DNA of 64,000 nucleotides from Candidatus Micrarchaeota archaeon. GTDB lineage: Archaea > Micrarchaeota > Micrarchaeia > Anstonellales > Bilamarchaeaceae. The stretch spans positions 5,528 through 69,527 of the forward strand of contig JBFMEZ010000025.1 in the NCBI GenBank assembly GCA_040753215.1, in the 5' to 3' direction. Shown in pieces: positions 14,910 through 52,936 of this stretch. A program made the translations under genes and the position numbers. The notes under the pieces are model-generated. The model saw nothing but the letters and a program-made list of their open reading frames with translations, was not told where the DNA came from and ran no database searches. Numbering within the stretch: position 1 is the stretch's first letter; every line of letters starts with the position of its first letter.

Positions 14910-14962
14910 GAAGAAAAATGCAGAAACAAGACGTGAAGGCACCCAAGACCAGAAGACCACCG

Positions 14963-15150
14963 CAAGACCTGGAGACCACGGTTGTGCGGTCTCGGAGTCC
15001 TGGAGTCTCGAGAGTCTTGAGAAACGTGGGGACTACGCAAGACCCCCAAGACCTGGAGACCACGGTTGTGCGGTCTCGGAGTCCTGGAGTCTCGAGAGTC
15101 TTGAGAAACGTGGGGACTACGCAAGACCCCCAAGACCTGGAGACAGCCTC
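14963..15150. repeat. tandem repeat, 84-bp unit x2.2, directly upstream of and in frame with the adhesin start
   Basis: Copies at 14963-15046, 15047-15130 and a partial 15131-15150. Translates as PQDLETTVVRSRSPGVSRVLRNVGTTQD. Shares GCAAGAC/GGTCT motifs with the 27-bp array and with the 5' end of the pilin gene at 18230. Confidence 0.85.
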
Positions 15151-15160
15151 AAGACCGTGC

Positions 15161-17677: not shown

Positions 17678-17682
17678 GGAGA

Positions 17683-18243: not shown

Positions 18244-18295
18244 GGATCGTCTTGGAGTCTTGAGTAGTCTCCATGTCTCCCGAGACTTGAGGACC

Positions 18296-19599: not shown

Positions 19600-19650
19600 A
19601 TGTTTCCGGTTCCCTGTTTCGGGTTTCCGGAAACTGGCAACGGGGAACTG
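19600..19650. repeat. inverted heptamer-repeat array (GTTTCCN)n...(GGAAACN)n forming a potential hairpin
   Basis: GTTTCCGGTTCCCTGTTTCGGGTTTCCGGAAACTGGCAACGGGGAACTG, between the pilin 7 stop and the CBS gene start. Confidence 0.7.
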
Positions 19651-19652
19651 AC

Positions 19653-21775: not shown

Positions 21776-21782
21776 GTGTCGT

Positions 21783-22667: not shown

Positions 22668-23620
22668 ATCCTGTTAAAAGCTATGTGAATTACATACGGC
22701 AACTCCTGGCGTACTGCGACATCTCCGCATCGCCCAACAAGTTCGCCCTCTTCACGCTATGGTTCCCCTTCCTGACCGCGCTCATAATCTCGGTTTTCTT
22801 CCTCAGGGAGCAGGGGCACATCCTCTTCGCGGTGGGCGCCGCCGCATTCGTGGCGGCGGAGGCTGGGATATTCGGGTTCCTCATCCTCGCAAAGAACAGG
22901 AGGGCCGAGGCGGCGGAGGAGGCGATGCCGGACTTCCTGCTGCTCGCTTCAAACAACATAAGGAGCGGGATGACCCCGGACAGGGCGCTGATAGCATCGG
23001 CGAAGGACGAGTTCGGGGTGCTGAGCAGGGAAGTCATGCGGGTGATGCGGGAGACGGTCTCCGGAAGGCCTTTTGAGGAGATGCTGATGAAGGTCACCGA
23101 GAGGATAGATTCGCGGACTATTGAGAACACCGTGAGGCTCGTTGTCGAGGGGATGTATTCGGGCGGGGAGCTCCCCTCTCTCCTTGAAAGGACCTCCTAC
23201 GACATAAGGACGATGAAGACGCTCAGGAAGGACGTGCAGGCGCTCATAGTCACGTACCAGATGTTCATAGCGTCCGCCGTGATGTTCGGGGCGCCTATCC
23301 TCTTCGCGGTGGCAACGCACATAGTTGAGATAATGATCGCGCTGAGGGCAAAGATAACAATAAGCGGGCTTGCCGTGGCGGGGGGGCTGATACCGCTCGG
23401 CAGCGCGGCCGGAGTGAGCGCCGACACGCTCATGCTGTTTGCGGTGAGCGCGATATTCGTGAACTCCCTCTTCGCATCGGTTGCGATAGGGCTCATTTCA
23501 AAGGGAAGGAAGGTGGAGGGGCTGGGCTATTTCCCGCTCGTGTTCCTGGTCTCGCTGGCGTTCTTCTTCCTTGTGAGGCTCGTGCTCAAGAGCGCCCTCG
23601 GCGGCGTCCTGCCTGTATAA
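22664..23620 (+). CDS. TadC/FlaJ-like pilus assembly membrane protein (T2SS-F domain), second of two
   Basis: ATGA overlap with the previous gene and a similar TM/cytoplasmic pattern. Together the two genes resemble a split FlaJ. Confidence 0.65.
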   Translation: MNPVKSYVNYIRQLLAYCDISASPNKFALFTLWFPFLTALIISVFFLREQGHILFAVGAAAFVAAEAGIFGFLILAKNRRAEAAEEAMPDFLLLASNNIRSGMTPDRALIASAKDEFGVLSREVMRVMRETVSGRPFEEMLMKVTERIDSRTIENTVRLVVEGMYSGGELPSLLERTSYDIRTMKTLRKDVQALIVTYQMFIASAVMFGAPILFAVATHIVEIMIALRAKITISGLAVAGGLIPLGSAAGVSADTLMLFAVSAIFVNSLFASVAIGLISKGRKVEGLGYFPLVFLVSLAFFFLVRLVLKSALGGVLPV

Positions 23621-37200: not shown

Positions 37201-40200
37201 CTGTGCCCAGGGGCAAGCTCCGCAAGAAGGCCCGCGGCTCCGCGCCTGACATTAACATCTTCGTTGTGAGCCAGCAGCTCCCCGAGGAGGGGCCCTGCAC
37301 GGCTGAAATCCATCGCAAGGAAGTACCTCCGGGTGTCCAGGCCTTTTCCGCCCAAAAGTATGAGCCGGCTGGCCGCACCCTCTGCGACCTGCTGGGAATC
37401 GTGGGTGAGCATCGGGGCGAGCACATCGCACGCCTCTTCGGTGCCCATCTGTCCCAGCACGGATATCGTTCTGAGGTTTTCCCCGTCCTCCCTGCCTGCG
37501 TATATGGACGGCAGGAGGCGGAGGCCGCCGGAGTGTATGCTTGAAACCGCGAGCTTCCTGACTTCGGCGTTCCCGCCGGCTGTTGCGGAACAGAGCACGG
37601 GGTAAACATCTTCAGGGTAGCGCACCGCGAATTCCGAGAGCAGGGTGGCGGCTGAGACGCCGGCTGCTTCGCTGAGCTCGCTGCCATCGCTGTCCAGCAC
37701 CGCTTCCTTCAGGAGGGCGAGCGAGCGGTTGAAATCCAGGTTCCTGAAATATTTGTGGGTGTCAGTGCCATCTGCTCCGTGCGCGGCGAGCAGCACACGG
37801 GCCGCCTCTGCGGAAACTGCGGGCTCCGTGTCGAGCAGCACGGGCGAGAGCGCGGCAAGCGCCTCCTGCGTCCCTATCTCCCTCAGGACCGAGACCGCGT
37901 TTAGCTTGCCCTCCCTTGTGCATGAGCCGAATTCCTCGGACACGGCCCGTATCACTGCGCCGTCCCCCCGGGATATGAGCATGGAGCATACGCCCATCGC
38001 GACATCCGGGTAGTCCAGGGCTCCGGCGAGGCCGTTGAGCGCCGCCGGGTCGTTTATGTCCGCCAGCCTCTGGAGGGCTGCGAGGCGGGCATCGGAGTCC
38101 TTCGCCCTGTGGAGCAACTTCACGAGCCTTGCTACCTCCCTGCCGGATTCCCTGGAAGATGCGACCAGCTCCGGAGCGGGAGGCGAGTAAACTGTAGGCC
38201 CCGCGTTTTCTGGCCCGGATTTTCCCACAAGCCCCTGCGGAGGCGGGTATAGGGATGTCGGCCTCGCTTCCAGAGGTATTCCATCTGCATGGGCCTCTGC
38301 TGTTTGCGGCACCGGAGCTGGCGGCTCTGGTTCGGCCGCAGGAACATGCGAGGTTGCGCCCGGCGTTTCCGGAGCCGGCTGGCCTTCAGCGGCAGGTGCA
38401 GCAGGTTCCTCGCCCAAAACATCCTCTTCCCTCACCGGAGCAGGCGGCTGGGACGGGGTTTCTGGCAAACCAAACCCCCGCCCTCCCGGTCCCACTTCGG
38501 CTCTGGAGGTTTGGTTTGGTCTCCCGTTTCCTGTTTCCGGTTTCGCGTCCGCTGTTGGCTGCGGAGCGCCTGCTGCCTGCGCTTCTGCCTTTTCTCCTGC
38601 AAGCGCTGCGGCTATCTCTTCCGGTGTGGGGGCACGTCTCTGAAACGTCCTCCATTTATCCGGAGGCAGCAGTTTTCCATCGGGGCCGAGCAGCGCGGGG
38701 CCCACATCCGGCGCAGGTGCGGGGCCTTTCATTGTCGGGTGCGCGGAAGGAACATCAGCAACCGGCTGGGGAGTGGAAACTGTAGAGTGGGAACCGGGAA
38801 CCGGAAGCGGGGAACTGGTTGCTGGCTGCGCTGCGGGCATCCCTACTGCGGTCCCTCCCCTCGCAGCGTCTGCCATCTCTTGTGAACCTGAAACGGGCGG
38901 CTTTCCTGCCGTAAGGTCAATCACCCGCTGGAACTCGCCGCTTTCGGAAGCATCCGGCGCATGTGGCACAATTTCCAAGTGCAGCTTCTTTGCACCCGGT
39001 TTCCCGCTTTCTGTTTCGGAACTGGAAACCGGAGACAGGAAACCGGAAACTGCGCTGCCACCTGCGGGCGGGACTGCGTGACCGGCAACCGTTCTGCCTC
39101 TCAGCGCCTCTGCCATTGCGAGGCTCTCGGGGGCAGCGGAGGAAACCGGCCCGGAACCGGAAACTGGAAGCCGGGAACCGTGAACCGGCTCTGTTGGTGC
39201 AGCTGCGGTGGCGGCTCTTGGCGCTTCCGCTGGGGGAGTCGGCACTTCGGGAGTTTCCGGCAACCGGGAACCGGAAACTGGAAGCTGGGGTGCCGGGTAA
39301 GGAGGAGGAAGCGGCTTAAGGAGGCCTGAATCGCCTTCTGAGCCGGCTGCGATTGTGGCAGCGAGGCCTATGGGCGCGGCGATTTCGACCGCATGCACGC
39401 GCGGGCCGGAGCCGTTTGCAGGAGGGGCTGCTGGAACCGTGGGCCTTGCTTCACTCTCCTTTGCGGCCTCAAGCTCGCGCTCGACAACCTTAAGGAATTC
39501 CAGCACTGCCGGCCCGGAGGGAAGCCCTATCCTTTCGGAATTTATCTTGTCCAATGCCGCGTGCATCAGTTCCGGCGCAATGGAACCGTTGCCGCAGAGA
39601 AGGTAGATGTGGAGCTTTGCAGGGTAGGGGTGGCCCGCATCTATGCACAGCCCGGAGAAGAATGCCGTCTCCTCATCAATGCCGCTGAACTGCTTCCTCT
39701 CGGAAAGGAGGATTGCGAGTGCCTTCTTTCCCACATCCTCGGGAATGAAGCCCCTCTGCACCCTGTTGTCTATCTGCCTTTTCGTCCTTATTTCGGCCCT
39801 GCAGACCGTGAAGAGCTTGTCCGCCTCTTCGGGGGTTTTCACCGACGCCTCGCCTGCGCGAACACGCCTAAGGGCTTCCTCCGCGGCCATGGCAGCGTAG
39901 TTGTCGGCCGGCGGCTTCCATTCCTTTCCGACTGCGCGCATGAGTGCGGCGAGCCGCTCGGGCATCGCGAGAACTGCGTTCCAGCCCTCGAGTTCTGCCT
40001 CCTTTTCGGCAAGGGCTGCGGGAGCGGGTTCCTTCTTTCTCATGCCCCCAACAGACTTGCCGAGGGTTTCAACAAAACCTTCCGCGGTCCTGCGCAGCTT
40101 CTCGCCCTGGAAAATATTGAGCAGGCCGGAGCGGCCCACGCGCACTCCGCCCATGGTTCTCGGGCCTTCCGCGAGCATAGTATAAGCGTTATCTTCGGGC

Positions 40201-42500
40201 TCTGCGCCGAACGCTGCCTTCCACGCCTTCTGCAGGAGCTGGGCGAGCTCCGGGTCCGCCTGCTCTATTTCGAGGATGTGGAGCCTCCTGGCCGCCTCTC
40301 CCATTTTGATTACATAGGCAAGTGCAGCGGCCTTGACCAGGTCTTCGGCGGCCTTATCCGTTTCCGGTTTCCCGCTTCCAGTTTCCGGCAACGGAGAACC
40401 GGGAACTGGCAACTGCTGGGCGCCTTCTGCCGCCTCTTCCGTGCTGCCTGAATCGTACCATCCGAGATATCTCTCGTCCGCAACGAGCCGCCGCACCTGC
40501 TCCTCCCTCGGCAATCTGAGGAGTTCCGGCGGGACTATTGCGCCTGCCTTCTGCCTTATTGCCTGCTCCAGCCCGGCCGCAAGCGAATCCATGGAATCGT
40601 TCAGCCCTCCAACGGCATCCGGCCCCAGGATTTCGGCGTTTGCAAGGAAAACCCTGCAGGAATCCCTCACAAATGAGCGCACATCAGACTGGAATTCCTT
40701 TTCTTCCTTAAGGGAGGCGAGGACCTGCGGGCGGGTGAGCAGGATGCCTGAAGCGAGGTATCTCCTCTCTGCCTCAAATGCAACGGAATAGGAATAGCCG
40801 CCCTCTTCTGCAATCATCCATATGTATTCGCCGCTGCTGCCCTGCAGCTTAAAGCGTGCCTGGAGAAGAATGTCGCCGGCGGAATCCAGGTCGGACGGGA
40901 TGACGAAATGGGTCCCGGAGAGCCGGATTGCGGCATCGGCTTCCTCATCCGTATAGCCGGAACCCTCTGCGGCCTTACTTATCAGCTTTGCGGCATCCTC
41001 TTCTTTCAGGAGATACTCCTTTGCCGCTGCCAGGTATCCTGAGGCCGCTTCCTCATCCTGGAGAATAGTGCCCTTTGCCTCTGCAGCATTCTGGGCCGCT
41101 ATCCAGGCTTTCATCGGGAATCCGCCTTTATCACCGGCTTTTCCTACAAGGACATGGTTCTGGATTTTCTGCTCTTCGGTGAGGACTGGCGGCCTGGGCA
41201 TCACGGTTGTGGATTCGGATTCGTGGATGAGCATCTGCCTTGTTTCCTCAAGGACATGGCGGGAATATTCATCGGGATGCATGCTGGGGAGCTTTACCGG
41301 GACCGCGTCGCCTGAGCCGATGTCCGCCTTTCCTGAAAGGCGCTCGGCTGCGCGCATGTAAACCCTCCTCGGGAATCCGCCGGATTTCCCGGAACCGTAT
41401 ACGTAGGATGATGGGTTGCTGAGGAAGGAGTGCTCTGCCCTCATCTCTGCAAGCACCTCTTCGGAGACTATTCTCTTTCCTGAAGAGGAGTGCCTTCCGG
41501 CTACTGTGGTGATGACCGGGGTGCGGAGCGGGCCGGCGGGAACTCCCCTCCCGCCGAGCATCCTCACATATTCGTATCCGTGCCTCGCCTGCATTAGGAG
41601 GTCGAGCGCTTCGGATTCCAGCGCCTCGCGCCTTTCCTTGCGGCCGTGCGTGACGTGCATCCCGAGGGCCTTTGCAGGCGGCTTCGGGAACCAGTTGTAT
41701 TTTGCGCAGAGGGCGAGGGCTGAGGCGGCTTCCCTTGCGGTGAAGCCGTTCTTTTTCGCGAGCCTGCGGATGAATCTTTCAGTTGCATTCGGGATTCCGG
41801 CTTCCGGTGAAACAACCACTTTGGGGGGAGCGGGCTGCGGCGCGGGCGGCTGGGGCGGAATGGCAGGGGCAGTAACCGGCCGGGTTGCCATGGACGATAC
41901 AGAAGCTGGAGATGCGGACGAGACTGGGGTGGAAGCAGGAACTGGCAGCCGGGAACTGGAAACTGGAGACCGCGGGGCTGCCATGCCTTTTGGATGCGGC
42001 TGCGCTGCTTTGCTTAGGAGGCCGAGGGCTCCAGCCTCATCCGCCGGAATGCTGCCGGAGCAGAAGGAGATGCCCCTTGCCCTTAGGATGTCATCTTCCG
42101 TGAAACGGGTGTCCCTGCCGGCTGCCTTCCTGAGGAGGCGCATGAGCTTTTTTTCGGAGCCCGCCCATTCCTCTGCGCGCACGAGCAGGTCGCGGGCGCT
42201 GTTTCCTGTGAGCCTTGTGCCGGGCGGAAGGTCGAGGCACAGGTCCTTTGCAAGCCCGATTACGGCTGCTGTGCAAGGGTACCCTTTATTGCCTGTGTAT
42301 TCCACCACGTACCAGTTTGTGGCGATGTCGAGCAGGTTGCGCGCAGAGGATGCATCAAATGCCGAGCCTTCTGGCAGGCGCTTTACTAAGCCCTTGGCTG
42401 CCGCAAGCGCATCGTTGGTATATCCATCGTACTCTGCGACATTTTCAAGCAATGCAAGGTTCCTTTCGGTTCCAGCTGGGAGTGCAGTAGTGTCTCTCAT
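34224..42500 (-). CDS. giant protein (2758 aa): N-terminal globular regions, ~450-aa Pro/Ala-rich low-complexity linker, ~1500-aa array of PBS-lyase/HEAT-like repeats
   Basis: 8.3-kb open frame in 60% GC DNA, which cannot be chance. The C-terminal half is repeated helical units (e.g. DSDARLAALQRLADINDPAALNGLAGALDYPD, NEDVNVRRGAAGLLAELAPGH). The linker contains in-frame GGAAACC-family repeats giving PVSGS and PETGN peptides. Confidence 0.7.
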   Translation of the reverse strand: MRDTTALPAGTERNLALLENVAEYDGYTNDALAAAKGLVKRLPEGSAFDASSARNLLDIATNWYVVEYTGNKGYPCTAAVIGLAKDLCLDLPPGTRLTGNSARDLLVRAEEWAGSEKKLMRLLRKAAGRDTRFTEDDILRARGISFCSGSIPADEAGALGLLSKAAQPHPKGMAAPRSPVSSSRLPVPASTPVSSASPASVSSMATRPVTAPAIPPQPPAPQPAPPKVVVSPEAGIPNATERFIRRLAKKNGFTAREAASALALCAKYNWFPKPPAKALGMHVTHGRKERREALESEALDLLMQARHGYEYVRMLGGRGVPAGPLRTPVITTVAGRHSSSGKRIVSEEVLAEMRAEHSFLSNPSSYVYGSGKSGGFPRRVYMRAAERLSGKADIGSGDAVPVKLPSMHPDEYSRHVLEETRQMLIHESESTTVMPRPPVLTEEQKIQNHVLVGKAGDKGGFPMKAWIAAQNAAEAKGTILQDEEAASGYLAAAKEYLLKEEDAAKLISKAAEGSGYTDEEADAAIRLSGTHFVIPSDLDSAGDILLQARFKLQGSSGEYIWMIAEEGGYSYSVAFEAERRYLASGILLTRPQVLASLKEEKEFQSDVRSFVRDSCRVFLANAEILGPDAVGGLNDSMDSLAAGLEQAIRQKAGAIVPPELLRLPREEQVRRLVADERYLGWYDSGSTEEAAEGAQQLPVPGSPLPETGSGKPETDKAAEDLVKAAALAYVIKMGEAARRLHILEIEQADPELAQLLQKAWKAAFGAEPEDNAYTMLAEGPRTMGGVRVGRSGLLNIFQGEKLRRTAEGFVETLGKSVGGMRKKEPAPAALAEKEAELEGWNAVLAMPERLAALMRAVGKEWKPPADNYAAMAAEEALRRVRAGEASVKTPEEADKLFTVCRAEIRTKRQIDNRVQRGFIPEDVGKKALAILLSERKQFSGIDEETAFFSGLCIDAGHPYPAKLHIYLLCGNGSIAPELMHAALDKINSERIGLPSGPAVLEFLKVVERELEAAKESEARPTVPAAPPANGSGPRVHAVEIAAPIGLAATIAAGSEGDSGLLKPLPPPYPAPQLPVSGSRLPETPEVPTPPAEAPRAATAAAPTEPVHGSRLPVSGSGPVSSAAPESLAMAEALRGRTVAGHAVPPAGGSAVSGFLSPVSSSETESGKPGAKKLHLEIVPHAPDASESGEFQRVIDLTAGKPPVSGSQEMADAARGGTAVGMPAAQPATSSPLPVPGSHSTVSTPQPVADVPSAHPTMKGPAPAPDVGPALLGPDGKLLPPDKWRTFQRRAPTPEEIAAALAGEKAEAQAAGAPQPTADAKPETGNGRPNQTSRAEVGPGGRGFGLPETPSQPPAPVREEDVLGEEPAAPAAEGQPAPETPGATSHVPAAEPEPPAPVPQTAEAHADGIPLEARPTSLYPPPQGLVGKSGPENAGPTVYSPPAPELVASSRESGREVARLVKLLHRAKDSDARLAALQRLADINDPAALNGLAGALDYPDVAMGVCSMLISRGDGAVIRAVSEEFGSCTREGKLNAVSVLREIGTQEALAALSPVLLDTEPAVSAEAARVLLAAHGADGTDTHKYFRNLDFNRSLALLKEAVLDSDGSELSEAAGVSAATLLSEFAVRYPEDVYPVLCSATAGGNAEVRKLAVSSIHSGGLRLLPSIYAGREDGENLRTISVLGQMGTEEACDVLAPMLTHDSQQVAEGAASRLILLGGKGLDTRRYFLAMDFSRAGPLLGELLAHNEDVNVRRGAAGLLAELAPGHRDAYPLLASAIAEGDTEASHTIMQALHEGSFDALRHLEDTLLDPGSPEVAVERAAELFLSAKGDDADVHYAYSRLLEAASGNSRAMEIMEAEADFGRVCAVLGDYNAPFAARKSAAALVGGQAAGTSVPLLLNAYQQQPELRESVASLLAAMEPAGMLAVALSESRTLGRVHDPLISQLVMEMAEKGSNPVAHLASYAEAESSKGTLTAEECRFMISLAMEAGFADDDANRILASSLPVLKGMDDEQLVAAARFARKIGKGAVPVILRYAEAAAEGLGADGAHLLSIVVEDIGAKEGVEFLKHALPEAVRMNPAQLEKLQDLAIKLDAAHGEAILLEYAERKSREGALTPKEALALSGLASAFGGLLESGRCAALAGHMLPLIKDMDAADVAAMQDFASLPVFAEGATKHAGRFLADREKEGIAPKEAAAIAVLLARINSDASYRLLSGLVSGKSLGDEAVRTGRRVEEALSAAYGKGEVRPCLMRAAFDRGELSDLGLVAFKIFREQKDCGADLIKACVKAHLFGDVEAADNADRLREARTILVRNGDLAVGQLSDIVLSVDFSRYPPEYRRNALVTIGELAGYARKKKGHRQSEATEKKARECLLNAIGMKELSEGVVAMVLSEMRNINLLDSVAAVLSTEGGEKLAARVYNVLRLMGRGAQEQIGAMLRSGDENKAVQAAELFTRVLQSGRETPKELSVLPEFRENTRLLAGLLRHRNGMVSTCAEDALKAAGPYVPLDELERMVRLRVHPQDLLPLDLEIASRKTAAQLMAAAGGPAAEHFAAIIGDSRMLPEVISEVLGVAAGSPAIGEKLLEPMALRGGQGDLEEKYEALNFAAELDSPFSALLCAVQCGKDVGVPMSAAFSGSPPAEWQKLLLKWAAVKAVVYRGEASAASQLIASGMFTAAEIGELMRDAVDKRLADERMMARDRRELPAYYAGYFGPELRGRIAASMNAPRPAPSPGLPLPKRFRGLVQGPPPVPRGARKLHH

Positions 42501-44292: not shown

Positions 44293-45609
44293 TTACTTCC
44301 TGCTTTTCGCAACCACAAGCAGAAAAGTTGAGACGAGCACCGCGGCGACGGGGCAGGCCGCGGAGCCCGGGGAACCTGAAACCGGGGGCTGGGAACGGGA
44401 GACCGTTATGCTGTCGCTTATCTCGGTGCCCTGGGTGCTTACGAGGTACGGGACGGAGTAGGTGCCGCTGCCCAGCGAATCAAGGTTGAGCGCGTATGAA
44501 AGGGCCTTCCTGCCGCCGGGGGGAAGGAAAAGGATTCCGGACTCCTCGCCGTGCACGTAGGGCGGGAACGTGATTATGTAGGTGGGCGTGAGGTAATTCG
44601 CGCCCGGGTTGCTTATCACAACGCTGAATTCTGTGCCGTCAAAAGCGGCATACGCGGAGGAAACGGGCGGGAAGGGCCCGCTCTGGAGTATACGTATCCT
44701 GGCGACCGTATCGAAAGAGAAGGGGCCTCCCCTCGCAGTGAGCCGGTCGGCAGCGCCGGACTGGTCCAGGGAATAGGTGCCCGCGATGCGGCGCGCATCC
44801 AGGTTCCCCAGCTCCCGGAATGTGGGGTCCGAGGGCACCCACTGGCCGCCCATATCCAGCTCGGCCCATGCGTGCTCCTGCCAGCCGTCGCCGCTGAAGA
44901 CGTAGCCTGAAACGTAGCGCGTGCCGATGCCGAGAGAGCGGGCAAGCGAGATGAGGAGGTGCGTGTAGCCCACGCAAACGGCGCGTCGGCCGGCATATAC
45001 CTCCTCTGCCGGGGCGTCGTCCCCCCAGAAATCCTCATCGTATTCCACGTTCCTGTGCACCCAGTCGGTGAGGACCGCCGCGGCCTCCAGCTGGCCGCTG
45101 CTCTCGGCAGTATGGGAGCGGGCGAAGGCGGCCATTGCTGTGGTGTATGTTGTGAGCGTCGTGCCCGGGATGGAAGCGTTGGGGAGGGGCGGGTTGGAGG
45201 AGAGGTCCGGCATATAGCGCGTCTCAACGACCGCAACGGCAGTTATCTTTTTGGGGGTGGAGAGGTTGGCGGAGCGGTAGATTATCCTTATCTCGTCGCC
45301 GTGGCGGACCGCCTCGCCGTCGCTCAGGTTTATCTGGATTATCCTCTGGAACGGTGATTCGACAAGGAAGGTCGCATTCAGGACCGCGTCGCGGAGGGTG
45401 CCGTTTGAGACTATGTTCCATTCCTTTTCGAACTCGGCTGCCATGTAGCCGGTGTATGTGGAAAAGGAGATTGGGAGGAGAAGGAGGAAAATGAGAGCCG
45501 GAAACCGTGGGCTCAAACCGTGAAGCCAGGGACGGACGGGGGGACGGGAGGGCGGCTTCACGTCTTGACGGGAAACAGGGAACTGGAGGCTGGCTGGCAC
45601 GGGTTTCAT
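44293..45609 (-). CDS. secreted/anchored transglutaminase-like (cysteine-protease-fold) protein
   Basis: RRAVCVGYTHLL (catalytic Cys), WQEHAWAELD (His) and SDPT (Asp) form the transglutaminase-like core. N-terminal signal/TM (ALIFLLLLPISF) and C-terminal TM (VAAVLVSTFLLVVA). The leader region is encoded by heptamer repeats. The start ATG overlaps the purD stop (ATGA). Confidence 0.6.
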   Translation of the reverse strand: MKPVPASLQFPVSRQDVKPPSRPPVRPWLHGLSPRFPALIFLLLLPISFSTYTGYMAAEFEKEWNIVSNGTLRDAVLNATFLVESPFQRIIQINLSDGEAVRHGDEIRIIYRSANLSTPKKITAVAVVETRYMPDLSSNPPLPNASIPGTTLTTYTTAMAAFARSHTAESSGQLEAAAVLTDWVHRNVEYDEDFWGDDAPAEEVYAGRRAVCVGYTHLLISLARSLGIGTRYVSGYVFSGDGWQEHAWAELDMGGQWVPSDPTFRELGNLDARRIAGTYSLDQSGAADRLTARGGPFSFDTVARIRILQSGPFPPVSSAYAAFDGTEFSVVISNPGANYLTPTYIITFPPYVHGEESGILFLPPGGRKALSYALNLDSLGSGTYSVPYLVSTQGTEISDSITVSRSQPPVSGSPGSAACPVAAVLVSTFLLVVAKSRK

Positions 45610-46901
45610 CTCTTCAGCCTGCGCATGTGCTCCACCCTCTTCCTCACGAGCAGCTGGGTGCCTATGTCGGGCCTGTGCCACAGCGGGCCGTGCACCGCGC
45701 GCGTGCAGCATTCCGCCTTCTCCTCGGCGCGCTCCAGCAGCGGGTCCTGCGCGGCGACCGCCACCGCGCGGGAGGAGGTTGTGAGTATCCTGCCATCCTT
45801 CTCATAAACCGAGCCGAGGTATGCCTTGCCGCCGCAGTCCCACACCGCCCTGTTGTCAACCTCCACGGCAGCATCCTTCTTCCCGTTCTCTGGATAGCCC
45901 TCCGGGACCAGGTATTTCACGACGGTGCAATTGGGCAGGAAGGAAGCGCCGGTGAGGCTGCCCTCCACTATGGACTGGAGCACGTCCGCGAGCTGCGTGC
46001 GCAGCACGAGCAGGGCGTTCAGCGCCTCGGGGTCGCCGAAGCGCGCGTTGTATTCTATCAGCTTCACGCCGCTGCCGGTTATCATGAAGCCGCCGTAGAG
46101 GACGCCGCGGAAGGTGTTCCCCTCTGCGCGCATCGCGTCTATGGTCTGCTGCATTATGGATTTCGCCTCCTCCAGGTCCCTGAGCTCCATGAAAGGGAGA
46201 AGGCGGCCGGTGGAGTAGGAGCCCATCCCGCCTGTGTTGGGGCCCATGTCGTTGGTGAACGCGCGCTTGTGGTCCTGGACCGGCGGCATCACGGAAAGGC
46301 GCTCGCCGTCGGAGAATGCCTGGAGGCTGAACTCCTCGCCGTCCAGCTTCTGCTCAAGCAGCGCCTGCTTGTCCTTCCGGAGGAGCTCCCTCACGTAGTC
46401 CAGGGCTTCCTCCGCAGAATTGAGGTGCTCGCCCATAACGCGCACGCCCTTGCCGCCGGTGAGGCCCACGGGCTTGACCACCACGTCGCCGAATTCGGAA
46501 ATGAAGGAGGATGCGTCCGATTCGCTCTTTGCTATGCGGAAGGCCGGGAGGCCCGGGATGCCGTGCTTCTGGAGCAGGGTGCGGGCGTATCCCTTGTCCC
46601 ATTCTATGCGCGCGGCCTCCTTCAGCGGCGAGGCGACCTTGAGGCCCGCGCCTGCGAGGATGTCCGTCACGCCCTTGGCCAGGAGAGCGTCGGGGCTTAC
46701 GAAGCCGAGTTCTATCCCCTTCTCTATGCACCATGCGCCGACGGTCTCCCTGTCCGCCGGGTCGCAGACGAGGACCTCGCCGGCGAGCCTGGCGATTCCG
46801 GGGTGCTTCTTCTCCATTATCGCGTAGAGCGACGAGCTCCGGGAGAGCTGCTCGGCGATTGCGTGCTCGCGCGCGCCGGAGCCTACGAGGACCACCTTCA
46901 T
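45606..46901 (-). CDS. purD: phosphoribosylamine-glycine ligase
   Basis: MKVVLVGSGAREHAIA N-domain and an ATP-grasp central domain. 431 aa. Confidence 0.9.
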   Translation of the reverse strand: MKVVLVGSGAREHAIAEQLSRSSSLYAIMEKKHPGIARLAGEVLVCDPADRETVGAWCIEKGIELGFVSPDALLAKGVTDILAGAGLKVASPLKEAARIEWDKGYARTLLQKHGIPGLPAFRIAKSESDASSFISEFGDVVVKPVGLTGGKGVRVMGEHLNSAEEALDYVRELLRKDKQALLEQKLDGEEFSLQAFSDGERLSVMPPVQDHKRAFTNDMGPNTGGMGSYSTGRLLPFMELRDLEEAKSIMQQTIDAMRAEGNTFRGVLYGGFMITGSGVKLIEYNARFGDPEALNALLVLRTQLADVLQSIVEGSLTGASFLPNCTVVKYLVPEGYPENGKKDAAVEVDNRAVWDCGGKAYLGSVYEKDGRILTTSSRAVAVAAQDPLLERAEEKAECCTRAVHGPLWHRPDIGTQLLVRKRVEHMRRLKR

Positions 46902-47193
46902 TGCTTACCACCCGGAACCGGAAACTGGATGGCGGAAACCAGCAGGTTTCTGCCATGGCGGAATCCCGAAGGATTCTGCCAGTCTTCTCCGCAGAGAAGC
47001 GGAGTCATCGCCGCAGCGATGCGGAAACTGGAAACCGTCATGGCTTACCACCAACTATCCTTGAGAAGGTCTGGGAGAGTATGGAGAGCATGTCCATCCT
47101 GTACTGGCGGGCTATCATGTAGGAGCGTGGGCGGGAGAGCTTCCTTATTATGTCGAACCTGAAGACGCCGGGCTTTGTTTCCCTTGCCATGGT

Positions 47194-47889
47194 TCACCTC
47201 TTCCTTATGAAGCCGTTCTTGATGAGGGCATCGAGCCCCTCCTCCACCCTGCCGGCCGCGACGCTGTTCAGCTTGGAGAATTCCAGTACGTCTATCTCGC
47301 CGTCGTGGGTGCGTATCCACTCGAAAAGCTGCGCCTGCAGCTCCGTGTCGCCCATGCCCTCGAGGCGCTGCATCCGCTCCAGCAGGTCCTCGTTCTTTCG
47401 CTCGTATTCCACGAGGAGGCGCGCGTTCTGCGCGCTTGCCTGCACCAGGTCGTTGTATTTCTTCTCCAGGGAGGCGTGCTTCTGGCCGAGGTCCTTGAGC
47501 CGCGAGTACATCTCCATCTTTTCGCTGTCGGTGGCCTCGCCCATGGATTTCAGCAGGCTGAAATAGAATGTGTATACGGACTGGATCGGCACATCATAGT
47601 ATGCGGTGAGTATCTGGAACAGGTTCAGGAGCATGACCCCCATGTCAAGCGAGCGCGAGAGGCGGTGCTCAAGCACGGGGGTGGTGTATTTCAGTATTAT
47701 GGCGTTCTTGAGCAGCTCTATGCGGTAGTAGAGGTAGGGCTTCCCGTTCAGGTCCTCGGACTCGACCTTTTCTATGATGAGGGCGTCGTCGGAATAGTCC
47801 ATCCTGTTGAAGCCGAGCGAGCCGAGCGTCTGGAGGAGCGGCTTGAGCGGCCTCTTCCTCTTCGTGCTTATGCGTATTATCTCTTCCAT
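47194..47889 (-). CDS. coiled-coil protein with C-terminal winged-helix-like domain; last gene of the ATPase operon
   Basis: Heptad-rich central region (KHASLEKKYNDLVQASAQNARLLVEYERKNEDLLERMQRLEG) and a C-terminal LEFSKLNSVAAGRVEEGLDALIKNGFIRKR. Starts 2 nt after the ATPase stop. Confidence 0.5.
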   Translation of the reverse strand: MEEIIRISTKRKRPLKPLLQTLGSLGFNRMDYSDDALIIEKVESEDLNGKPYLYYRIELLKNAIILKYTTPVLEHRLSRSLDMGVMLLNLFQILTAYYDVPIQSVYTFYFSLLKSMGEATDSEKMEMYSRLKDLGQKHASLEKKYNDLVQASAQNARLLVEYERKNEDLLERMQRLEGMGDTELQAQLFEWIRTHDGEIDVLEFSKLNSVAAGRVEEGLDALIKNGFIRKR

Positions 47890-47891
47890 TT

Positions 47892-50800
47892 CTACTCCTC
47901 CCTCAAAGAAAGGTCAACCATGCCCTTGGAAGCCTTCCGCCTGCGGGCCAGGGAGAATATCTCCACTATGTCCTTCTCGCCCACCTCGAGCTGGCGGAGG
48001 AACCCCATTACGGAAGAGGGCGAGTAGCCGAACTTCTCAAGTATGGACACGAATTCCGTGGCGTCCATCACCCCGTCATTCCTCTCGAACTCGTTCTTCA
48101 CAAGCCCTATCTGCTCGTCGGTAAGGCCGAGCTCGTAGAGCATGTTGCAGAACTGCTCCCTTTCCTTTTCGACAGACATTCCATCAGCCTCCAGCGCATA
48201 CACGAACAGCGGCTCCTCCCCGTCTATCTTGTTAAGAAGGAAGGTGTGCGAGCCGCCTGCCCGCTTCGCGAATATCATGTTGAGGGCCGCGTCGCCCACG
48301 CCGAATTTGGAGATTTCGCCGTCTATGTAATCCGAGTAGTTCAGCGACTGCCGGACGTAGTCCTTGAACTCGCGCAGGACCAGCCGCAGTATGAACATCG
48401 TGCCGACGTTGCTCAGGATCGTCTTGTGCATGTCGGTAGGGTTCTGGGAGGCGACGATGAGGGCGAAGTTGTATTTCCTGCCCTCGCGCACTATCGTAAT
48501 CACGTCGCTGCGCTCGTCGGAGGCGATCTTCCACGCCTCGTCCACCACCACGAAGAGGCGGACGCCCTTCTCCTCCTTCATCTGCTCCCTGCGCATCCTC
48601 TCCTTGAGGAACTGGAGGATCGTGAGGCCCGCGAGGGAGCGCATCTCCTCGGTGGGGAGGGAATGGAGGTCTATGCACACCAGGCCCGAGTCCGTGAGCT
48701 TCTCCAGGGCCAGCGTGGAGGGCTTCGCGAAGAAGTCGCTGCCCTGAGTGGTGAAGCGCTTCAGCAGGCGCGCGGCGCCCCTCTTCTTTTTCTCCTCAAG
48801 CCTTTTCACGACGTCGGTGAGCGTGGGGTTCTTCGCACCGTCGTATGTTTCCTCGAGCGCCTCCTCTATGTCGTAGCGCTCGGAGGGGAAGTTGTGCAGG
48901 TCCAGCAGGATTTCGAGCGCGGACATTATCTGCTTCATCCGCTCGGATGGCGTGAGGCCAGCGAGGTCGAGGAGGTTGAGGTGCTCCTCGCCCAGGTGGA
49001 TGACCTTGCCGCCCGCCTGCTTCACCCACTTGTCGTACTCGCCGACCCAGTCCAGGATGAGCGCGTTGGAATTCCAGACGAGCGAGGCGCGGGTTAGGAA
49101 TGTTTTGGTTAAGTACGAGTTGTGGACAAACAACCCGCCAAAGCCGGCCATGAAAACCTCGCTGTCAACGGAAAGATCGTAAACGAACTCATCCCCAGAA
49201 GGCTCTTCCGCCTTTTCCACTATGGGGTCCCAGAAGAGGTCGGATTGTGCGAGCAGGTTGAGGAATTCCACTTCCTTGTCCCCGGTTGCCTGCACCGAAA
49301 CCTGCTCCAGAAGGCTTGCAAGATATTTTTTGGTTGGCCTCCTCAAGCCGGTTTGTATGGAGTAAGTCATCTGTGTGCGCGGGAGAGAATATTTCTTCAT
49401 CACGGAAGCAACGACGCCTTCTATGTTCGGAATCACATCAACGTTGCTGTGGCCCTTCCCGCATCTCTGGAGCAGCAGAACGAGGTTGTGGTTTTTCCTT
49501 TGAGTTACGAAGCCGATGTTTTCCGTGTATTTTCTGATGTTCTCCTTGCCGGATACCGTAACACGGTAGTATAACCCTCCCTTATGCTTAGAGTTGGTTG
49601 CCCTCTTCTTGCTTGGGTGGACTCTAGCGATTATGCCGAACCTCAGGAGCATGTAGCACAGCTGGCTGGCGAGCTCTTTTGACTTGGTGGTAGCGCTTAT
49701 GCACTTCTGCTCAACGCCGCCATCACCCTCAAAGTAACCCTTTAGGAATTCTGCGAGGTATTCCAGCTTGGAGGCCATAATGGGCGCGGGTATTTTCTTG
49801 CTGCCGGCATTGCCCTCAAGGCCGATTCTTTTTAGTAGCCGGACTACCGCGCTCGCTGAAGTGCGAAGCCCATGAGGTATTGGGAAGAACTGGAAGCCGA
49901 CAATCCCAAAGCAGCTTTTCATGTCGTCAAGAAGTTCCGGCTCGGTCGTGTGCACGTTTATGAAATGCTTTGCAATTGTGCCTTCTGAAACTATGTAGCC
50001 GCACAGCCTTGCGAGTGCCATCGCCTTTTCATTTTCTATCTTCGGGAGCAGAAGGGCGGAGCCGCTGGGCGACCTGAGTTTCAGTCCGGGAATAATGCGT
50101 GCGTCCAGACCGAGGAGTTCCATGATCTGGCTGAAATACGCGAGTGGGATTGCCCTTCCGGCTTTGTAGAAGCGGAGGTACTTGTCATATTTTTTGTTTA
50201 TCGGGAGCCACTTGTGCAACCTTTCGCAGTTGTCCGCGATAACTCCGGCTGCGCCTACCACATGGACATCGTCGTGTTTAAGCAGCCCAAGGGTGTCTAC
50301 GGCGAACTCTTCGCCTTCGAATGACAGCTCTCGCGGGGTGGGAATGTAATCACCCGTGCGCACCTCCGAGCCCTTGGCCACCGAGATACCGCCATCGCGC
50401 AGGACGAGGATGTTGTGGTCACCTGTCGTCCTTATCTCCCTGCCACTTGCGGTTTTGAATGAGTACAGTGTGCTCGGGGACTTTTTCCGCCCGGCGAAAT
50501 TAACGGGCACCCATTTCGCCTTTAGATTGCCATCAAATGAGTATATCTCGATGCCGGGGCTGCTGACGCCCTCCACATCGTCAATCGTTTCTGCAGAACC
50601 GGAATTTTGGATGAGCCCGTCTATAAGTTCTCCGATTTTTGCGATGCGGACCTTTCCGTTTTGCCTTATTATCACCGGCTCGTTTCTATCAATCGACTTT
50701 CCGCTCCCCGTGATGCCGACGATGGCGATGTGCGGGTTGATGAGCTTCTGGTAGTTCCAGAAGACCGGAACGTTCAGCCAGCGGGTTTTTCCCACATATA

Positions 50801-50906
50801 TCCCGTCTCCGGAGGATGAGATGAGGTATTCGGGCCTGGGCTCCGGCGGGTGCACCAGGAAAAGGCGCTCTGCAAGCTGCGGGGTGTAGATTTTCTGCAC
50901 TTTCAT
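47892..50906 (-). CDS. HerA/FtsK/VirB4-superfamily ATPase (DUF87-like) interrupted by a large intein
   Basis: Walker A AIVGITGSGK|S is interrupted after GK. Walker B is LFVVVDEAW and the sensor is ALIVASQNPTD. The inserted segment carries two LAGLIDADG motifs (LARLCGYIVSEGT, LKGYFEGDG) and ends ...GGLFVHN|S (intein blocks F and G with +1 Ser). Confidence 0.8.
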   Translation of the reverse strand: MKVQKIYTPQLAERLFLVHPPEPRPEYLISSSGDGIYVGKTRWLNVPVFWNYQKLINPHIAIVGITGSGKSIDRNEPVIIRQNGKVRIAKIGELIDGLIQNSGSAETIDDVEGVSSPGIEIYSFDGNLKAKWVPVNFAGRKKSPSTLYSFKTASGREIRTTGDHNILVLRDGGISVAKGSEVRTGDYIPTPRELSFEGEEFAVDTLGLLKHDDVHVVGAAGVIADNCERLHKWLPINKKYDKYLRFYKAGRAIPLAYFSQIMELLGLDARIIPGLKLRSPSGSALLLPKIENEKAMALARLCGYIVSEGTIAKHFINVHTTEPELLDDMKSCFGIVGFQFFPIPHGLRTSASAVVRLLKRIGLEGNAGSKKIPAPIMASKLEYLAEFLKGYFEGDGGVEQKCISATTKSKELASQLCYMLLRFGIIARVHPSKKRATNSKHKGGLYYRVTVSGKENIRKYTENIGFVTQRKNHNLVLLLQRCGKGHSNVDVIPNIEGVVASVMKKYSLPRTQMTYSIQTGLRRPTKKYLASLLEQVSVQATGDKEVEFLNLLAQSDLFWDPIVEKAEEPSGDEFVYDLSVDSEVFMAGFGGLFVHNSYLTKTFLTRASLVWNSNALILDWVGEYDKWVKQAGGKVIHLGEEHLNLLDLAGLTPSERMKQIMSALEILLDLHNFPSERYDIEEALEETYDGAKNPTLTDVVKRLEEKKKRGAARLLKRFTTQGSDFFAKPSTLALEKLTDSGLVCIDLHSLPTEEMRSLAGLTILQFLKERMRREQMKEEKGVRLFVVVDEAWKIASDERSDVITIVREGRKYNFALIVASQNPTDMHKTILSNVGTMFILRLVLREFKDYVRQSLNYSDYIDGEISKFGVGDAALNMIFAKRAGGSHTFLLNKIDGEEPLFVYALEADGMSVEKEREQFCNMLYELGLTDEQIGLVKNEFERNDGVMDATEFVSILEKFGYSPSSVMGFLRQLEVGEKDIVEIFSLARRRKASKGMVDLSLREE
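49119..50696 (-). mobile_element. intein with LAGLIDADG homing-endonuclease domain (about 526 aa) inside the ATPase P-loop
   Basis: Boundaries inferred from extein continuity: GITGSGK-[S71...N596]-SYLTKTF restores a Walker A plus helix. Terminal HN with +1 Ser. The first residue Ser is unusual but known. Confidence 0.7.
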
Positions 50907-51686
50907 CTAGAACACTTCGTCCCTTAGCTGTTCCGCCTCGGGCGGCAGGAAGTATTCCCACTCGAAGCACCTCACCATGTCCAGGTCGAACAGCTCGTTG
51001 ACGTCCGCGCCGAGCGTGGAGGAGATTATGGTCTTCACTTCCTTCGACTGCCTGCGGACCTTGGAAAGCGCCTCCTCGCGCGTGACGCCGTATGCGGTGG
51101 TGGAGACGAAGGACGTGATTTCGAGCGGGCGGTCTCCCCGGCTTATGCGCTCGAGCTGGCGGTTGTACATCGCGATCTCGCGGTCTAGGCGCACGAGCTC
51201 CTCGCTGTTCGGGGGGAGCTTGCGGCGCTTGCCCTCCGCCGCAGCGCGGCGCGTCTTTATGTCGTCTATCTCGCGCGTGAGGTCGACCTCGGAGACCAGG
51301 AGGGATATCTTCACCGCGTGCTTGAGGGATGCGAGCGCCTTCTCGAACGAGGAGAGCATGGACGCGCGGTCCTGCGAGTCCTTGTCCATCGTGCTCTCGT
51401 AGTACTTTATCTCCAGGAATTTGGTGGCGTAGAAGCCGTTGCCCGCCTTCTTCACGATGCAGTCGCGGGTGGAGGGTATCTCATAGCCGCCGCGGATCTC
51501 GACTATGTTGGTCGCGGAAGTGAAGTATGGTATCAGGAGGTAGCCGTACTTCCAGACGACCAGCGAGAGGACGAAGAAGAGGGCTGAGAGGGCGGCGAAT
51601 ATGGGGTTGCCCATAACCACCGCAATCACCAGGGCCGCAAGCCCGCCTCCGAGCGACATCAGCGTCATCATCCTGTTTTCTATCAT
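50907..51686 (-). CDS. membrane protein: 2 N-terminal TM helices plus a ~190-aa cytoplasmic domain (VirB3/TrbD- or CedA-like position in operon)
   Basis: Start MIENRMMTLMSLGGG; the ATG overlaps the upstream gene's stop (ATGA). The cytoplasmic domain has a coiled-coil segment. It abuts the ATPase start. Confidence 0.5.
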   Translation of the reverse strand: MIENRMMTLMSLGGGLAALVIAVVMGNPIFAALSALFFVLSLVVWKYGYLLIPYFTSATNIVEIRGGYEIPSTRDCIVKKAGNGFYATKFLEIKYYESTMDKDSQDRASMLSSFEKALASLKHAVKISLLVSEVDLTREIDDIKTRRAAAEGKRRKLPPNSEELVRLDREIAMYNRQLERISRGDRPLEITSFVSTTAYGVTREEALSKVRRQSKEVKTIISSTLGADVNELFDLDMVRCFEWEYFLPPEAEQLRDEVF

Positions 51687-52612
51687 AGGGAGCCCACCGC
51701 GAAGAAGAATTCCCCGCCGAATATTTCTGTTACCTCCTTTATGAATATTGCGGTTACGATGAGGGAGAAGAGGGGGGCGAGCAGCACGAAGAGCGAGAGC
51801 GACGAGATGGATTCGCTTATGCGCTGGGCGGCGAGCGTGAGGTCGCCTGTGAAGTCGCCGGTGGTCATGTTGTCGAGCTTCCCGGCGATTGCGTAATTGT
51901 CGTTTAGGTCGAGGATGGGCGTGGTCCTGTAGAGCGTGCTGTTGGTGACGTTGGTGAGGTTTGCTGTCGTCACGTTCAGCTCCGGGACCGGGAATATGAG
52001 GATGAACGCCGGGTAGAAGAGGTACACCCCTATGGAGAGGGCGATCAGGAACCCGCCGAGCCTGCGGGTGGAGAAGAAGGAGCGGAAGATGAGCCCGACC
52101 GGGAGGAAGAACGTGAGCAGCTGCGGGGCGAAGAAGCCGAGCACCTGGACCTGGAACTGGGAGACTGTGAGCAGCGCCTGCAGCGTGAGTATCTGCGACT
52201 GCAGGACGGACGCGATTGAGGAGAGGCCCGACATCGGCTGGATGGAGAACGTGGAGAATTCCAGGTTTATCGTCTGGTAGTACGAAACCATCTGGTGGAG
52301 GCTCACCGCCTGGGCGAGCAGCGCGAAGATCTCTGAGGAGAGGCTGGAGAATATGCACTGGAGGTTCTCTATCGCGTCTCCCGCGGTGCACGCGCCCTCA
52401 GTTATTATCCCGCGGCTTATTTCTGTGGCTGCGGCGACTATTGCGGTGTAGGCGCCGACCAGCGCCGCGTTTATCACGGACTGGATGAGCTCCTCCGTGC
52501 CGAAGTGCTCAAGCCGCTTCGAGTTCAGCGTCCTGCCGAGCCCCATCAGTATGCCTGAGAGGATTATGGAAAGGCTTACGACTATGCCGGCGAGGGTAAG
52601 GTCAGCTGCCAT
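51683..52612 (-). CDS. polytopic membrane protein (309 aa, at least 6 TM), candidate translocon/VirB6- or CedA-like component
   Basis: Hydrophobic throughout, with an extracytoplasmic loop carrying N-x-T sequons. Same operon. Confidence 0.5.
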   Translation of the reverse strand: MAADLTLAGIVVSLSIILSGILMGLGRTLNSKRLEHFGTEELIQSVINAALVGAYTAIVAAATEISRGIITEGACTAGDAIENLQCIFSSLSSEIFALLAQAVSLHQMVSYYQTINLEFSTFSIQPMSGLSSIASVLQSQILTLQALLTVSQFQVQVLGFFAPQLLTFFLPVGLIFRSFFSTRRLGGFLIALSIGVYLFYPAFILIFPVPELNVTTANLTNVTNSTLYRTTPILDLNDNYAIAGKLDNMTTGDFTGDLTLAAQRISESISSLSLFVLLAPLFSLIVTAIFIKEVTEIFGGEFFFAVGSL

Positions 52613-52629
52613 TTTTCACCTTCCCTGGG

Positions 52630-52875
52630 TCAGGTCAGGAGGTTCGACGCCACCGTCTGTATCAGCTCTGCGGCGCCTATTATCGCGGCGATAAGGACGC
52701 CGCCTATGAAAAGCCCTATCGCGGTGTTCTGCCACCTTCCCCTTGTCTCCCCGGGCTGGAGCTGTGCAAGCCCGTAGGCGACGCCCCCGACTATTATCAG
52801 GAGCAGCGAGAGGGTGACGCCGGCGGACTTCATGACTTCCAGCCAGCTCGAGAGGAGCGTCTCTATATACGCCAT
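52630..52875 (-). CDS. small two-TM membrane protein (81 aa), VirB2/TrbC-pilin- or CedA1-like
   Basis: Two hydrophobic helices separated by a short polar loop. First gene of the co-directional cluster. Confidence 0.45.
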   Translation of the reverse strand: MAYIETLLSSWLEVMKSAGVTLSLLLIIVGGVAYGLAQLQPGETRGRWQNTAIGLFIGGVLIAAIIGAAELIQTVASNLLT

Positions 52876-52936
52876 GGCCTTCTAATCGTAAGGAAGCTAT
52901 ATAAAGCTTTTTCGGGGGCTTTAATTCGGGGAAAAC

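Follow-up and report, generated by a model that had tools for sequence, protein, structure and literature searches.

A candidate type IV secretion-like (Ced/Ted-like) operon in the chromosomes of Micrarchaeota

Main Finding

The window analyzed here, a 64 kb stretch from a Candidatus Micrarchaeota archaeon (GenBank assembly GCA_040753215.1, contig JBFMEZ010000025.1, positions 5,528 to 69,527), carries an operon of five genes that in our reading encodes a minimal envelope machine resembling a type IV secretion system (T4SS) of the Ced/Ted kind, fixed in the chromosomes of Micrarchaeota. The probability that we give to this reading is about 0.68. It is carried by an ATPase nearest to CedB and VirB4, by a membrane protein whose predicted fold is that of the N-terminal domain of VirB4, by a small protein from a VirB2-type pilin family, and by the conservation of the locus over the phylum. 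What would be new here is a T4SS/Ced-like system in a new phylum, a VirB4 split over two genes, a new partner protein, vertical fixation throughout the phylum and a duplicated, pilin-rich sister system. A first-pass annotation, made from the sequence of the window, had proposed a Ced/Ted-like module for DNA transfer at this place.

Organization of the Operon

The five genes were named g1 to g5 in the order of transcription, and all lie on the minus strand. Coordinates are those of the window, and lengths are in amino acids (aa) or nucleotides (nt).

52898..52905, minus strand: TATA box TTTATATA, ~26 nt upstream of the g1 ATG, with an A-rich stretch like a B recognition element (BRE) before the box
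52630-52875, minus strand: g1, 81 aa
51683-52612, minus strand: g2, 309 aa
50907-51686, minus strand: g3, 259 aa, the true ATG lying inside a longer mechanical open reading frame (ORF)
47892-50906, minus strand: g4, a precursor of 1004 aa, intein included
49119..50696, minus strand: LAGLIDADG intein of 526 aa inside the Walker A motif of g4 (GSGK/S...VHN/S, the slashes marking its two ends)
47895..48203, minus strand: C-terminal domain of the ATPase, ~100 aa
47194-47889, minus strand: g5, 231 aa

The tight five-gene operon of the first-pass annotation was recovered, with two corrections at the junctions. The ATGA overlap between g2 and g3 is the sole one in the operon, where two had been reported, and g1 and g2 are separated not by 0-2 nt but by a gap of 17 nt that contains a GGTGA ribosome-binding site. 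The junction of g3 and g4 reads TAGATG, a gap of 0 nt in which the g4 start codon abuts the g3 stop, and 2 nt separate g4 from g5. Upstream of g1, TTTAWAWA was the only conserved block within 100 nt in 10 relatives. This suggests that the TTTATATA box is the single archaeal promoter predicted for the operon, from which a leaderless or short-leader mRNA would be made.

The related loci used here and below come from a search through the GTDB species, each represented by one genome, in which at least 402 ATPase relatives were confirmed; the best 80 loci are numbered L001 to L080.

The g4 ATPase and Its Intein

Without its intein, g4 is a contiguous protein of 478 aa, collinear with intein-free homologues that are up to 90% identical to it; over Micrarchaeota, the identity of homologues runs from 59 to 90%. 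In Pfam the extein was matched best by DUF87 (6.5e-18) and also by AAA_10 (3e-16). The best NCBIfam model was CedB (1e-32 to 2e-31), aligned in a single stretch over CedB residues 251-570 of 590, and the second was VirB4 CD1110 (2e-28 to 4e-26). For all 21 family members that were compared, no HerA model ranked as high as the top five of NCBIfam (CedB, VirB4-CD1110, VirB4_plasma, CedD and TraC/VirB4_CagE), and the HerA models matched only portions of the ATPase domain; this agrees with the HerA/FtsK/VirB4-superfamily ATPase of the first-pass annotation. Since only ~45 residues precede the Walker A motif, g4 has neither the HAS-barrel of HerA nor the N-terminal domain of VirB4. A weak match to FtsK_SpoIIIE was confined to the P-loop (E 3e-4).

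The closest plasmid-borne proteins are 23-30% identical to g4 and mostly annotated as "VirB4-like conjugal transfer ATPase, CD1110 family"; they include an ATP-binding protein of the Thermococcus nautili strain 33-3 plasmid NZ_OX281346 (103,230 bp), which is apparently the conjugative plasmid pT33-3. One homologue of g4 bears the automatic NCBI name "DNA import protein CedB". The C-terminal domain of the ATPase is family-specific, had no Pfam match, and was found with jackhmmer in all 80 ATPase ORFs; in five loci of the second type described below, a copy of it stands alone as a gene of 96-101 aa. By these profile matches, g4 is predicted to consist only of a VirB4/CedB-type motor domain and the family-specific C-terminal domain.

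An intein in the ATPase had been implied by the mention of an extein in the first-pass annotation, and it is indeed present. It was matched by the Pfam families LAGLIDADG_3 (4.7e-23) and Intein_splicing (1.9e-14) and has Ser1, a block B TGDH, the terminal HN and Ser+1, as expected of a class 1 LAGLIDADG intein. An intein occupies the same Walker A site in only 3 of 81 loci (the window, L007:2406-5483 and L055:4846-7890), which points to a sporadically distributed mobile intein. A different P-loop protein (GKFGSGK/C...) at L069:4008-6506 (minus strand) has a related intein in its Walker A motif.

A VirB4-Like N-Terminal Domain Encoded by a Separate Gene

The g3 protein, described in the first-pass annotation as a protein with two transmembrane segments and a cytoplasmic domain, has an N-terminal transmembrane hairpin, in a VirB3-like position, followed by a cytoplasmic alpha/beta domain. 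When its predicted structure was searched against the PDB with Foldseek, the eight best matches were all TrwK/VirB4. These fold-search scores are moderate, and they indicate that the cytoplasmic domain folds like the VirB4 N-terminal domain, a likeness that strengthens the T4SS case. Because g3 folds in this model as the VirB4 N-terminal domain and g4 comprises the ATPase domain only, VirB4 is predicted to be split over two genes, with the transmembrane segments and N-terminal domain in g3 and the motor in g4.

The g3 family is small and restricted to the lineage: when 1.84 billion representative proteins were searched exhaustively with its profile, 184 clusters came up, with full-length members of ~240-280 aa. 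No protein long enough to be a fusion of g3 with the ATPase was seen among the matches listed from these representatives. An odd match to the g3 profile, P0412, has 466 aa and is matched at residues 237-392. In NCBIfam, g3 had a single faint match (VirB4_plasma, E 0.24).

A bacterial locus on the Pontibacillus plasmid NZ_CP062975 (L083:4458-7137) encodes a VirB4-CD1110 protein of 621 aa, preceded by an overlapping hypothetical gene of 274 aa and, farther upstream, by a pilin-like gene. It may be a partly split VirB4.

The Platform and Pilin Candidates

The g2 protein is polytopic; a loop that it exposes contains two invariant Cys along with four N-x-S/T sequons. TrwI/VirB6 was the best full-length structural match of its predicted model, in keeping with the VirB6/CedA-like protein of the first-pass annotation, and the moderate fold-search scores suggest a platform protein like VirB6, CedA and TedA.

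In the g1 protein a short basic loop, PGETRGRW, connects two hydrophobic helices, and there is no signal peptide. Pfam T4SS_pilin matched 10 of 19 members of its family (best E 1.4e-7) and Pfam TrbC/VirB2 matched 8 of 19 (best E 1e-6); the top PDB profile match of g1 was TrwL, the VirB2 of plasmid R388 (E 0.03). The family, taken as a whole, is on this sequence evidence of the VirB2/TrbC type and CedA1-like, as had been proposed for the small two-helix protein. Paralogues of g1 in the second type of locus have a signal peptide that looks cleavable. Neither g1 nor g2 matched any Ced model in NCBIfam, their likeness being to the wider VirB2 and VirB6 folds only.

At L061:20277-21566, the gene for a VirB2-like pilin from the g1 family lies directly upstream of an ATPase gene of the T2SSE type, that is, of a type IV pilus; this is an odd pairing of a T4SS-type pilin with a type IV pilus motor.

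The g5 Partner Protein

The gene g5 always follows the ATPase gene and was found in 77 of the 80 loci. In its product an alpha/beta region at the N terminus is followed by a coiled coil in the centre and a winged helix at the C terminus, which agrees with the coiled-coil and winged-helix protein first described. The Pfam winged helix of EAP30/Vps36 matched 10 of 17 family members (best 5e-6), next to scattered matches to TrmB, GntR, MarR and coiled-coil models. The top PDB profile match was 2xvc, named "ESCRT-III" by its depositors (E 0.008; profile positions 187-230, in the C-terminal part). For the protein of the window itself the winged-helix matches stay below threshold, and they are of a generic kind. 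We regard g5 as a cytoplasmic partner that is without a counterpart in known T4SS, Ced or Ted systems.

Conservation of the Locus in Micrarchaeota

All of the best 80 loci are labelled as Micrarchaeota or close variants of this name, and the close homologues of g2 to g4 all come from Micrarchaeota/Micrarchaeia; g2 is 100% identical to a protein from a metagenome-derived genome labelled "Candidatus Micrarchaeota archaeon". Synteny of g3-g4-g5 was seen in nearly all of the 80 loci and extended to g2 in most of them, an arrangement far beyond chance. Downstream of g5, purD was found in 51 loci and a gene for a transglutaminase-like protein in 44; the keeping of this order implies that the locus has held one chromosomal position since early in the history of the phylum. 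Compared within one and the same locus, the ATPase consistently shows a higher conservation than purD or PCNA (in L010, 71% vs 58% and 48%), g3 is conserved to the same degree as purD, and g2 and g5 evolve faster. From its gene order and divergence, the locus is predicted to be a fixed chromosomal feature of Micrarchaeota that is inherited vertically. The chromosomal nature proposed by the first-pass annotation is upheld by this synteny with purD throughout the phylum and by the lack of any integrase found in the window.

Two paralogous systems were recognized, often in one genome. Type 1 is that of the window, with ATPases 58-90% identical; the ATPases of type 2 are 45-49% identical to g4. 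Type-2 loci are L058-L080 except L072 (for example L077:785-12951, L064:127-13076 and L065:7814-15483). In these the order is g3, the ATPase gene, a gene for either a Zn-ribbon protein of ~129 aa with a transmembrane segment (17 loci) or the free C-terminal domain of the ATPase (the five loci mentioned above), then g5 and a conserved bitopic membrane protein of ~843 aa (19 loci). Some type-2 loci have three tandem genes for pilins with signal peptides, six tandem VirB6-like genes and two g3 genes.

Proposed Machine and Its Cargo

In the machine that we propose, g1 would be a VirB2-type pilin lying in the membrane as a hairpin of two helices, to be extracted and polymerised on a VirB6-like platform. 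This platform or channel would be g2, a polytopic protein that would serve both the extraction of the pilin and the passage of the cargo. The g3 protein would supply a membrane anchor at the position of VirB3 together with a VirB4 N-terminal domain that docks on the platform. Once the intein in its P-loop is spliced out, g4 would provide the ATPase domain, forming a hexamer and acting as the partner of g3 in a split motor, and g5 would be bound to this motor as a cytoplasmic coiled-coil/winged-helix adaptor or regulator. The whole would form a short pilus or conduit of the conjugative type that moves a macromolecule across the single archaeal membrane while cells are in contact. Inferred, in all this, are the assembly of a pilus, the complex of g3 with g4, the function given to g5, the direction in which transport runs and the nature of the cargo. 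The order of the genes (pilin, VirB6, VirB3/4) agrees with that of Gram-positive T4SS loci (VirB6, PrgI, VirB4).

Import or exchange would be likelier than plasmid export, because neither a relaxase nor a VirD4 was found at the locus, as is the case for Ced and Ted. No relaxase was present among the Pfam-scanned genes in or beside the operon, although no relaxase model was run across the window or the 80 loci, and no second ATPase like FtsK, HerA or VirD4 was seen in the 64 kb window or among the same Pfam-scanned genes. By analogy with Ced, DNA is the cargo that we favour, at odds somewhat short of even; other macromolecules, derived from a host or secreted, are possible with a lower probability.

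Several observations weigh against our reading of the locus as a Ced/Ted-like machine. The CedB score of g4 is 109 bits vs a cut-off of 700 bits, and all of the ATPase matches are far under the curated cut-offs; this places g4 in a distinct family within the VirB4/CedB neighbourhood. For g2, nothing significant was found when the protein of the window and eight type-2 paralogues were compared with VirB6 in Pfam and NCBIfam, and hhalign against a CD1112 VirB6 profile of five sequences was also non-significant. For g3, Pfam (56 members) and a PDB profile search gave nothing significant for the VirB4 N-terminal domain or VirB3, nor did hhalign against single VirB4 proteins and an N-terminal domain profile of five sequences. 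In sequence profiles the ATPase led to CedB/VirB4 and the g1 family to VirB2, but not g1 and g2 to the Ced models or g3 to VirB4; taken together with the predicted folds, the results support the components as assigned in the first-pass annotation. These negative profiles for g2 and g3 parallel the situation of Ced and Ted, which both consist of VirB2, VirB6 and VirB4 components that are without mutual sequence similarity (PMC9905601). The g1 protein of the window, taken alone, is sub-threshold for Pfam T4SS_pilin (E 0.0032; 18 bits vs a threshold of 26.6), and in most deeper-branching type-1 loci no pilin gene adjoins g2. In eight type-1 loci (L019, L023, L027 (2409-10001), L035, L037, L044, L045 and L048), 1-7.6 kb of unrelated DNA lies between g2-g3 and g4-g5; what is tightly kept is therefore each gene pair and not the operon as a whole. 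Finally, nothing in the conserved neighbourhood (purD and the transglutaminase-like protein) points to DNA as the cargo.

Alternative Explanations

The alternative that survives best keeps the same T4SS-like hardware and gives it a cargo other than DNA. The locus would then encode a device for host interaction that moves proteins, nucleotides or other molecules, or merely an adhesion pilus, and would be an archaeal analogue of the essential T4SS of Patescibacteria. We consider this possible, though distinctly less probable than not. An ATPase that is more conserved than purD and PCNA, at a fixed position, suits an essential function better than accessory gene exchange; the T4SS of Patescibacteria, which comprises multiple pilins and mostly no relaxase, is essential to growth as an epibiont; and the type-2 loci combine multiple pilins with large surface proteins. 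Cryo-electron tomography (cryo-ET) of a cultured member of Micrarchaeota has revealed intercellular nanotubes and an envelope docking complex, but the nanotubes were assigned to the host and not to the symbiont (PMC11329633). Speaking for DNA are the closest characterized relatives in Archaea, which move DNA (Ced; Ted by proposal), and g5 and the C-terminal domain of the ATPase, which could bind it. No effector or toxin genes are conserved at the locus.

A more far-reaching form of this idea would make the locus the DPANN counterpart of the essential Patescibacteria T4SS: a conduit inherited vertically throughout the phylum, its VirB3/VirB4 motor split in a unique manner and a second paralogous system, rich in pilins, beside it, by which Micrarchaeota would take up DNA, nucleotides or further macromolecules from their host or from sister cells. 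We offer it tentatively, as a speculation that is more likely wrong than right. The proteinaceous tubes between cells that cryo-ET has shown might be formed, or docked, by this machine.

Much less probable is a membrane-anchored DNA pump like FtsK, or a membrane-remodelling module for division or segregation in which g5 would be an ESCRT-like adaptor. A conservation at the level of housekeeping genes would fit such a role, as would the EAP30/Vps36-like winged helix of g5, with 2xvc as its top PDB match, and the weak FtsK_SpoIIIE match of the ATPase. That match is limited to the P-loop, however, and the winged-helix matches are generic; a pilin family, a VirB6-like fold and tandem expansions of pilin and VirB6-like genes would not be expected in a division machine.

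We find it very improbable that the operon is the remnant, or an active module, of an integrated conjugative plasmid or other mobile element. Among annotated proteins, those most closely related to the ATPase are plasmid-borne VirB4 proteins, and genomic islands of Mia14 were suggested to hold conjugative elements (PMC5498576). Against this, the order g4-g5-purD-transglutaminase gene is syntenic in ~50 species-level genomes and its divergence tracks that of the housekeeping neighbours. There is neither an integrase in the window nor a flanking tRNA (the only tRNA of the window is ~40 kb from the operon), and base composition shows no break at the locus; models for relaxase or replication proteins were not run window-wide. 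A mobile element was rejected on synteny, the lack of a nearby tRNA and base composition.

Equally improbable is a HerA-type helicase acting in end resection or repair (HerA-NurA) or in HerA-based anti-phage defence. The ATPase does belong to the FtsK-HerA P-loop superfamily, the "HerA central domain" DUF87 is its top Pfam match, phmmer against the PDB gave HerA proteins as top matches, and HerA models of PADLOC reached 96 bits. Unlike HerA, it has no HAS-barrel in the short stretch before Walker A, and its score for HerA models falls below that for CedB/VirB4 in all members compared. The window has no NurA, Mre11 or Rad50 gene, neither Sir2 nor a nuclease effector lies nearby, and the partners are membrane proteins with T4SS-like folds; a HerA paired with NurA, the outcome that the first-pass annotation had set against its own proposal, was not what was found. 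PADLOC matched only the ATPase and none of g1, g2, g3 and g5, and an anti-phage defence system was rejected after this search; a phage origin was rejected after a PHROGs search.

Comparison with Known Systems

The Ced/Ted-like machine that we prefer has its nearest precedent in Ced of Sulfolobales and Desulfurococcales (CedA, CedA1, CedA2, CedB, CedD/CedE). Both are chromosomal and archaeal, both are without a VirD4 or relaxase as far as found, and both combine a two-helix pilin without signal peptide (CedA1), a polytopic VirB6-like protein (CedA) and an ATPase of the HerA/VirB4 clade. In Ced, too, the function of the VirB4 N-terminal domain is distributed over two polypeptides, the N-terminal domains of CedB and CedD each matching part of it (PMC11868833). 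The g4 protein is not a CedB orthologue, however: besides its low score, it lacks the N-terminal 250 residues of CedB. Whereas CedB and CedD each have transmembrane segments, N-terminal domain and ATPase in one chain, these are separated here between g3 and g4. Unlike Ced, the locus belongs to DPANN and not to Thermoproteota, has no linked ultraviolet-inducible partner locus of the Ups type, and is without sequence similarity to CedA, CedA1 and CedA2; g5 and the C-terminal domain of the ATPase have no Ced counterpart.

Ted of Thermoproteales (TedA, TedB, TedC) shares the set of VirB2-like pilin, VirB6-like protein and VirB4-like ATPase, and its pilin TedC has a signal peptide, as do the type-2 pilins of Micrarchaeota. 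In Thermoproteales a full VirB4, TedB, replaces CedB and CedD (PMC11868833), in contrast to the ATPase split from its N-terminal domain here, and there is no detectable sequence similarity. Ted loci often hold ParA/VirC1-like, HerA and Rad50 genes, none of which is at the Micrarchaeota locus.

The T4SS of Patescibacteria (candidate phyla radiation, CPR), derived from MPF-FATA, is essential, chromosomal and mostly relaxase-less, with several pilin genes (PMC12102498, PMC12857230). It resembles the present system in belonging to ultra-small, host-dependent cells, in being near-universal in its phylum and in its several VirB2-like pilin genes, most clusters being relaxase-less; the VirB4 CD1110/MPF-FATA models are also the second-best match of g4. 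It differs in being bacterial, with VirB1, VirB8 and VirD4-like parts and an intact VirB4, and its essentiality was shown by experiment.

The T4SS of Gram-positive bacteria and archaeal plasmids (CD1112, PrgI, CD1110; pNOB8, pT33-3) have the order VirB6, small transmembrane protein, VirB4 in common with the operon, besides the 23-30% identity of the ATPase. They differ from the operon in being mobile, in their linkage to VirD4, relaxases and cell-wall hydrolases, in a VirB4 that forms one chain of ~780-800 aa, and in having no partner like g5.

Relation to Published Work

The locus seems not to have been described, and no description of it was found in literature on Micrarchaeota or DPANN that mentions VirB4, Ced, T4SS or conjugation, subscription journals being incompletely covered. 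In the paper on the Mia14 genome only type IV pili, Sec and Tat are listed, and pili or "cell pores" are put forward as a speculation on the route of an extensive gene exchange with the host (PMC5498576). The archaeal section of a 2025 review of T4SS nomenclature covers plasmid systems only (PMC12857230). In the cryo-ET study of ARM-1, the only such study of a cultured member of Micrarchaeota, the proteins of the nanotubes and docking complex were not identified, and its supplements do not contain the terms HerA, VirB4, CedB or DUF87 (PMC11329633).

The ways in which DPANN acquire DNA, nucleotides and further building blocks from their hosts are of central interest, and the locus is a candidate for the means by which Micrarchaeota exchange material with other cells. 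With a defined T4SS-like machine of four to five genes, work with antibodies, proteomics, subtomogram fitting and heterologous expression would have a definite object. The machine would extend the story of domesticated conjugation, as told by Ced and Ted, beyond Thermoproteota, and it would provide a clean natural split of VirB4 into a gene for the N-terminal domain and one for the motor. It would also parallel the independent fixation of mostly relaxase-less T4SS in ultra-small bacteria, the Patescibacteria.

Neighbouring Genes and Other Features of the Window

Housekeeping genes flank the operon: to one side of it lie purD and the genes for PCNA and a transglutaminase-like membrane protein, to the other NFACT-R and purL. 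A short ORF next to g5 recurs between g5 and purD in 11 loci of close relatives, with weaker matches in 3 of those, and is without any family match; it may be a sixth member of the operon. A locus for an archaeal type IV pilus lies ~24 kb away. The features concerned are as follows.

47038-47190, minus strand: g6, tentative sixth gene, an ORF of 50 aa located 3 nt after g5
44293-46901, minus strand: purD and the transglutaminase-like membrane protein of 472 aa, downstream of g5
13235-23620: archaeal type IV pilus locus
13235-14272 and 17219-17677: pilins with class III signal peptides
20303-21775: T2SSE ATPase
21783-23620: two T2SSF membrane proteins

The first-pass annotation had taken this pilus locus as a nearby partner of the operon, and here it was not followed: a link was rejected in view of the distance and the lack of synteny elsewhere, type IV pilus genes being located within 10 kb of the ATPase gene in only 1 of the 80 related loci.

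A giant ORF of 2758 aa (34224-42500, minus strand) had the HEAT repeat as its sole Pfam match, and L002, L003 and L007 have homologues of it about as far from the locus. Two ORFs of ~270 aa with GTGK[ST] P-loops are located at 3255-4079 and 6831-7628, both on the plus strand.

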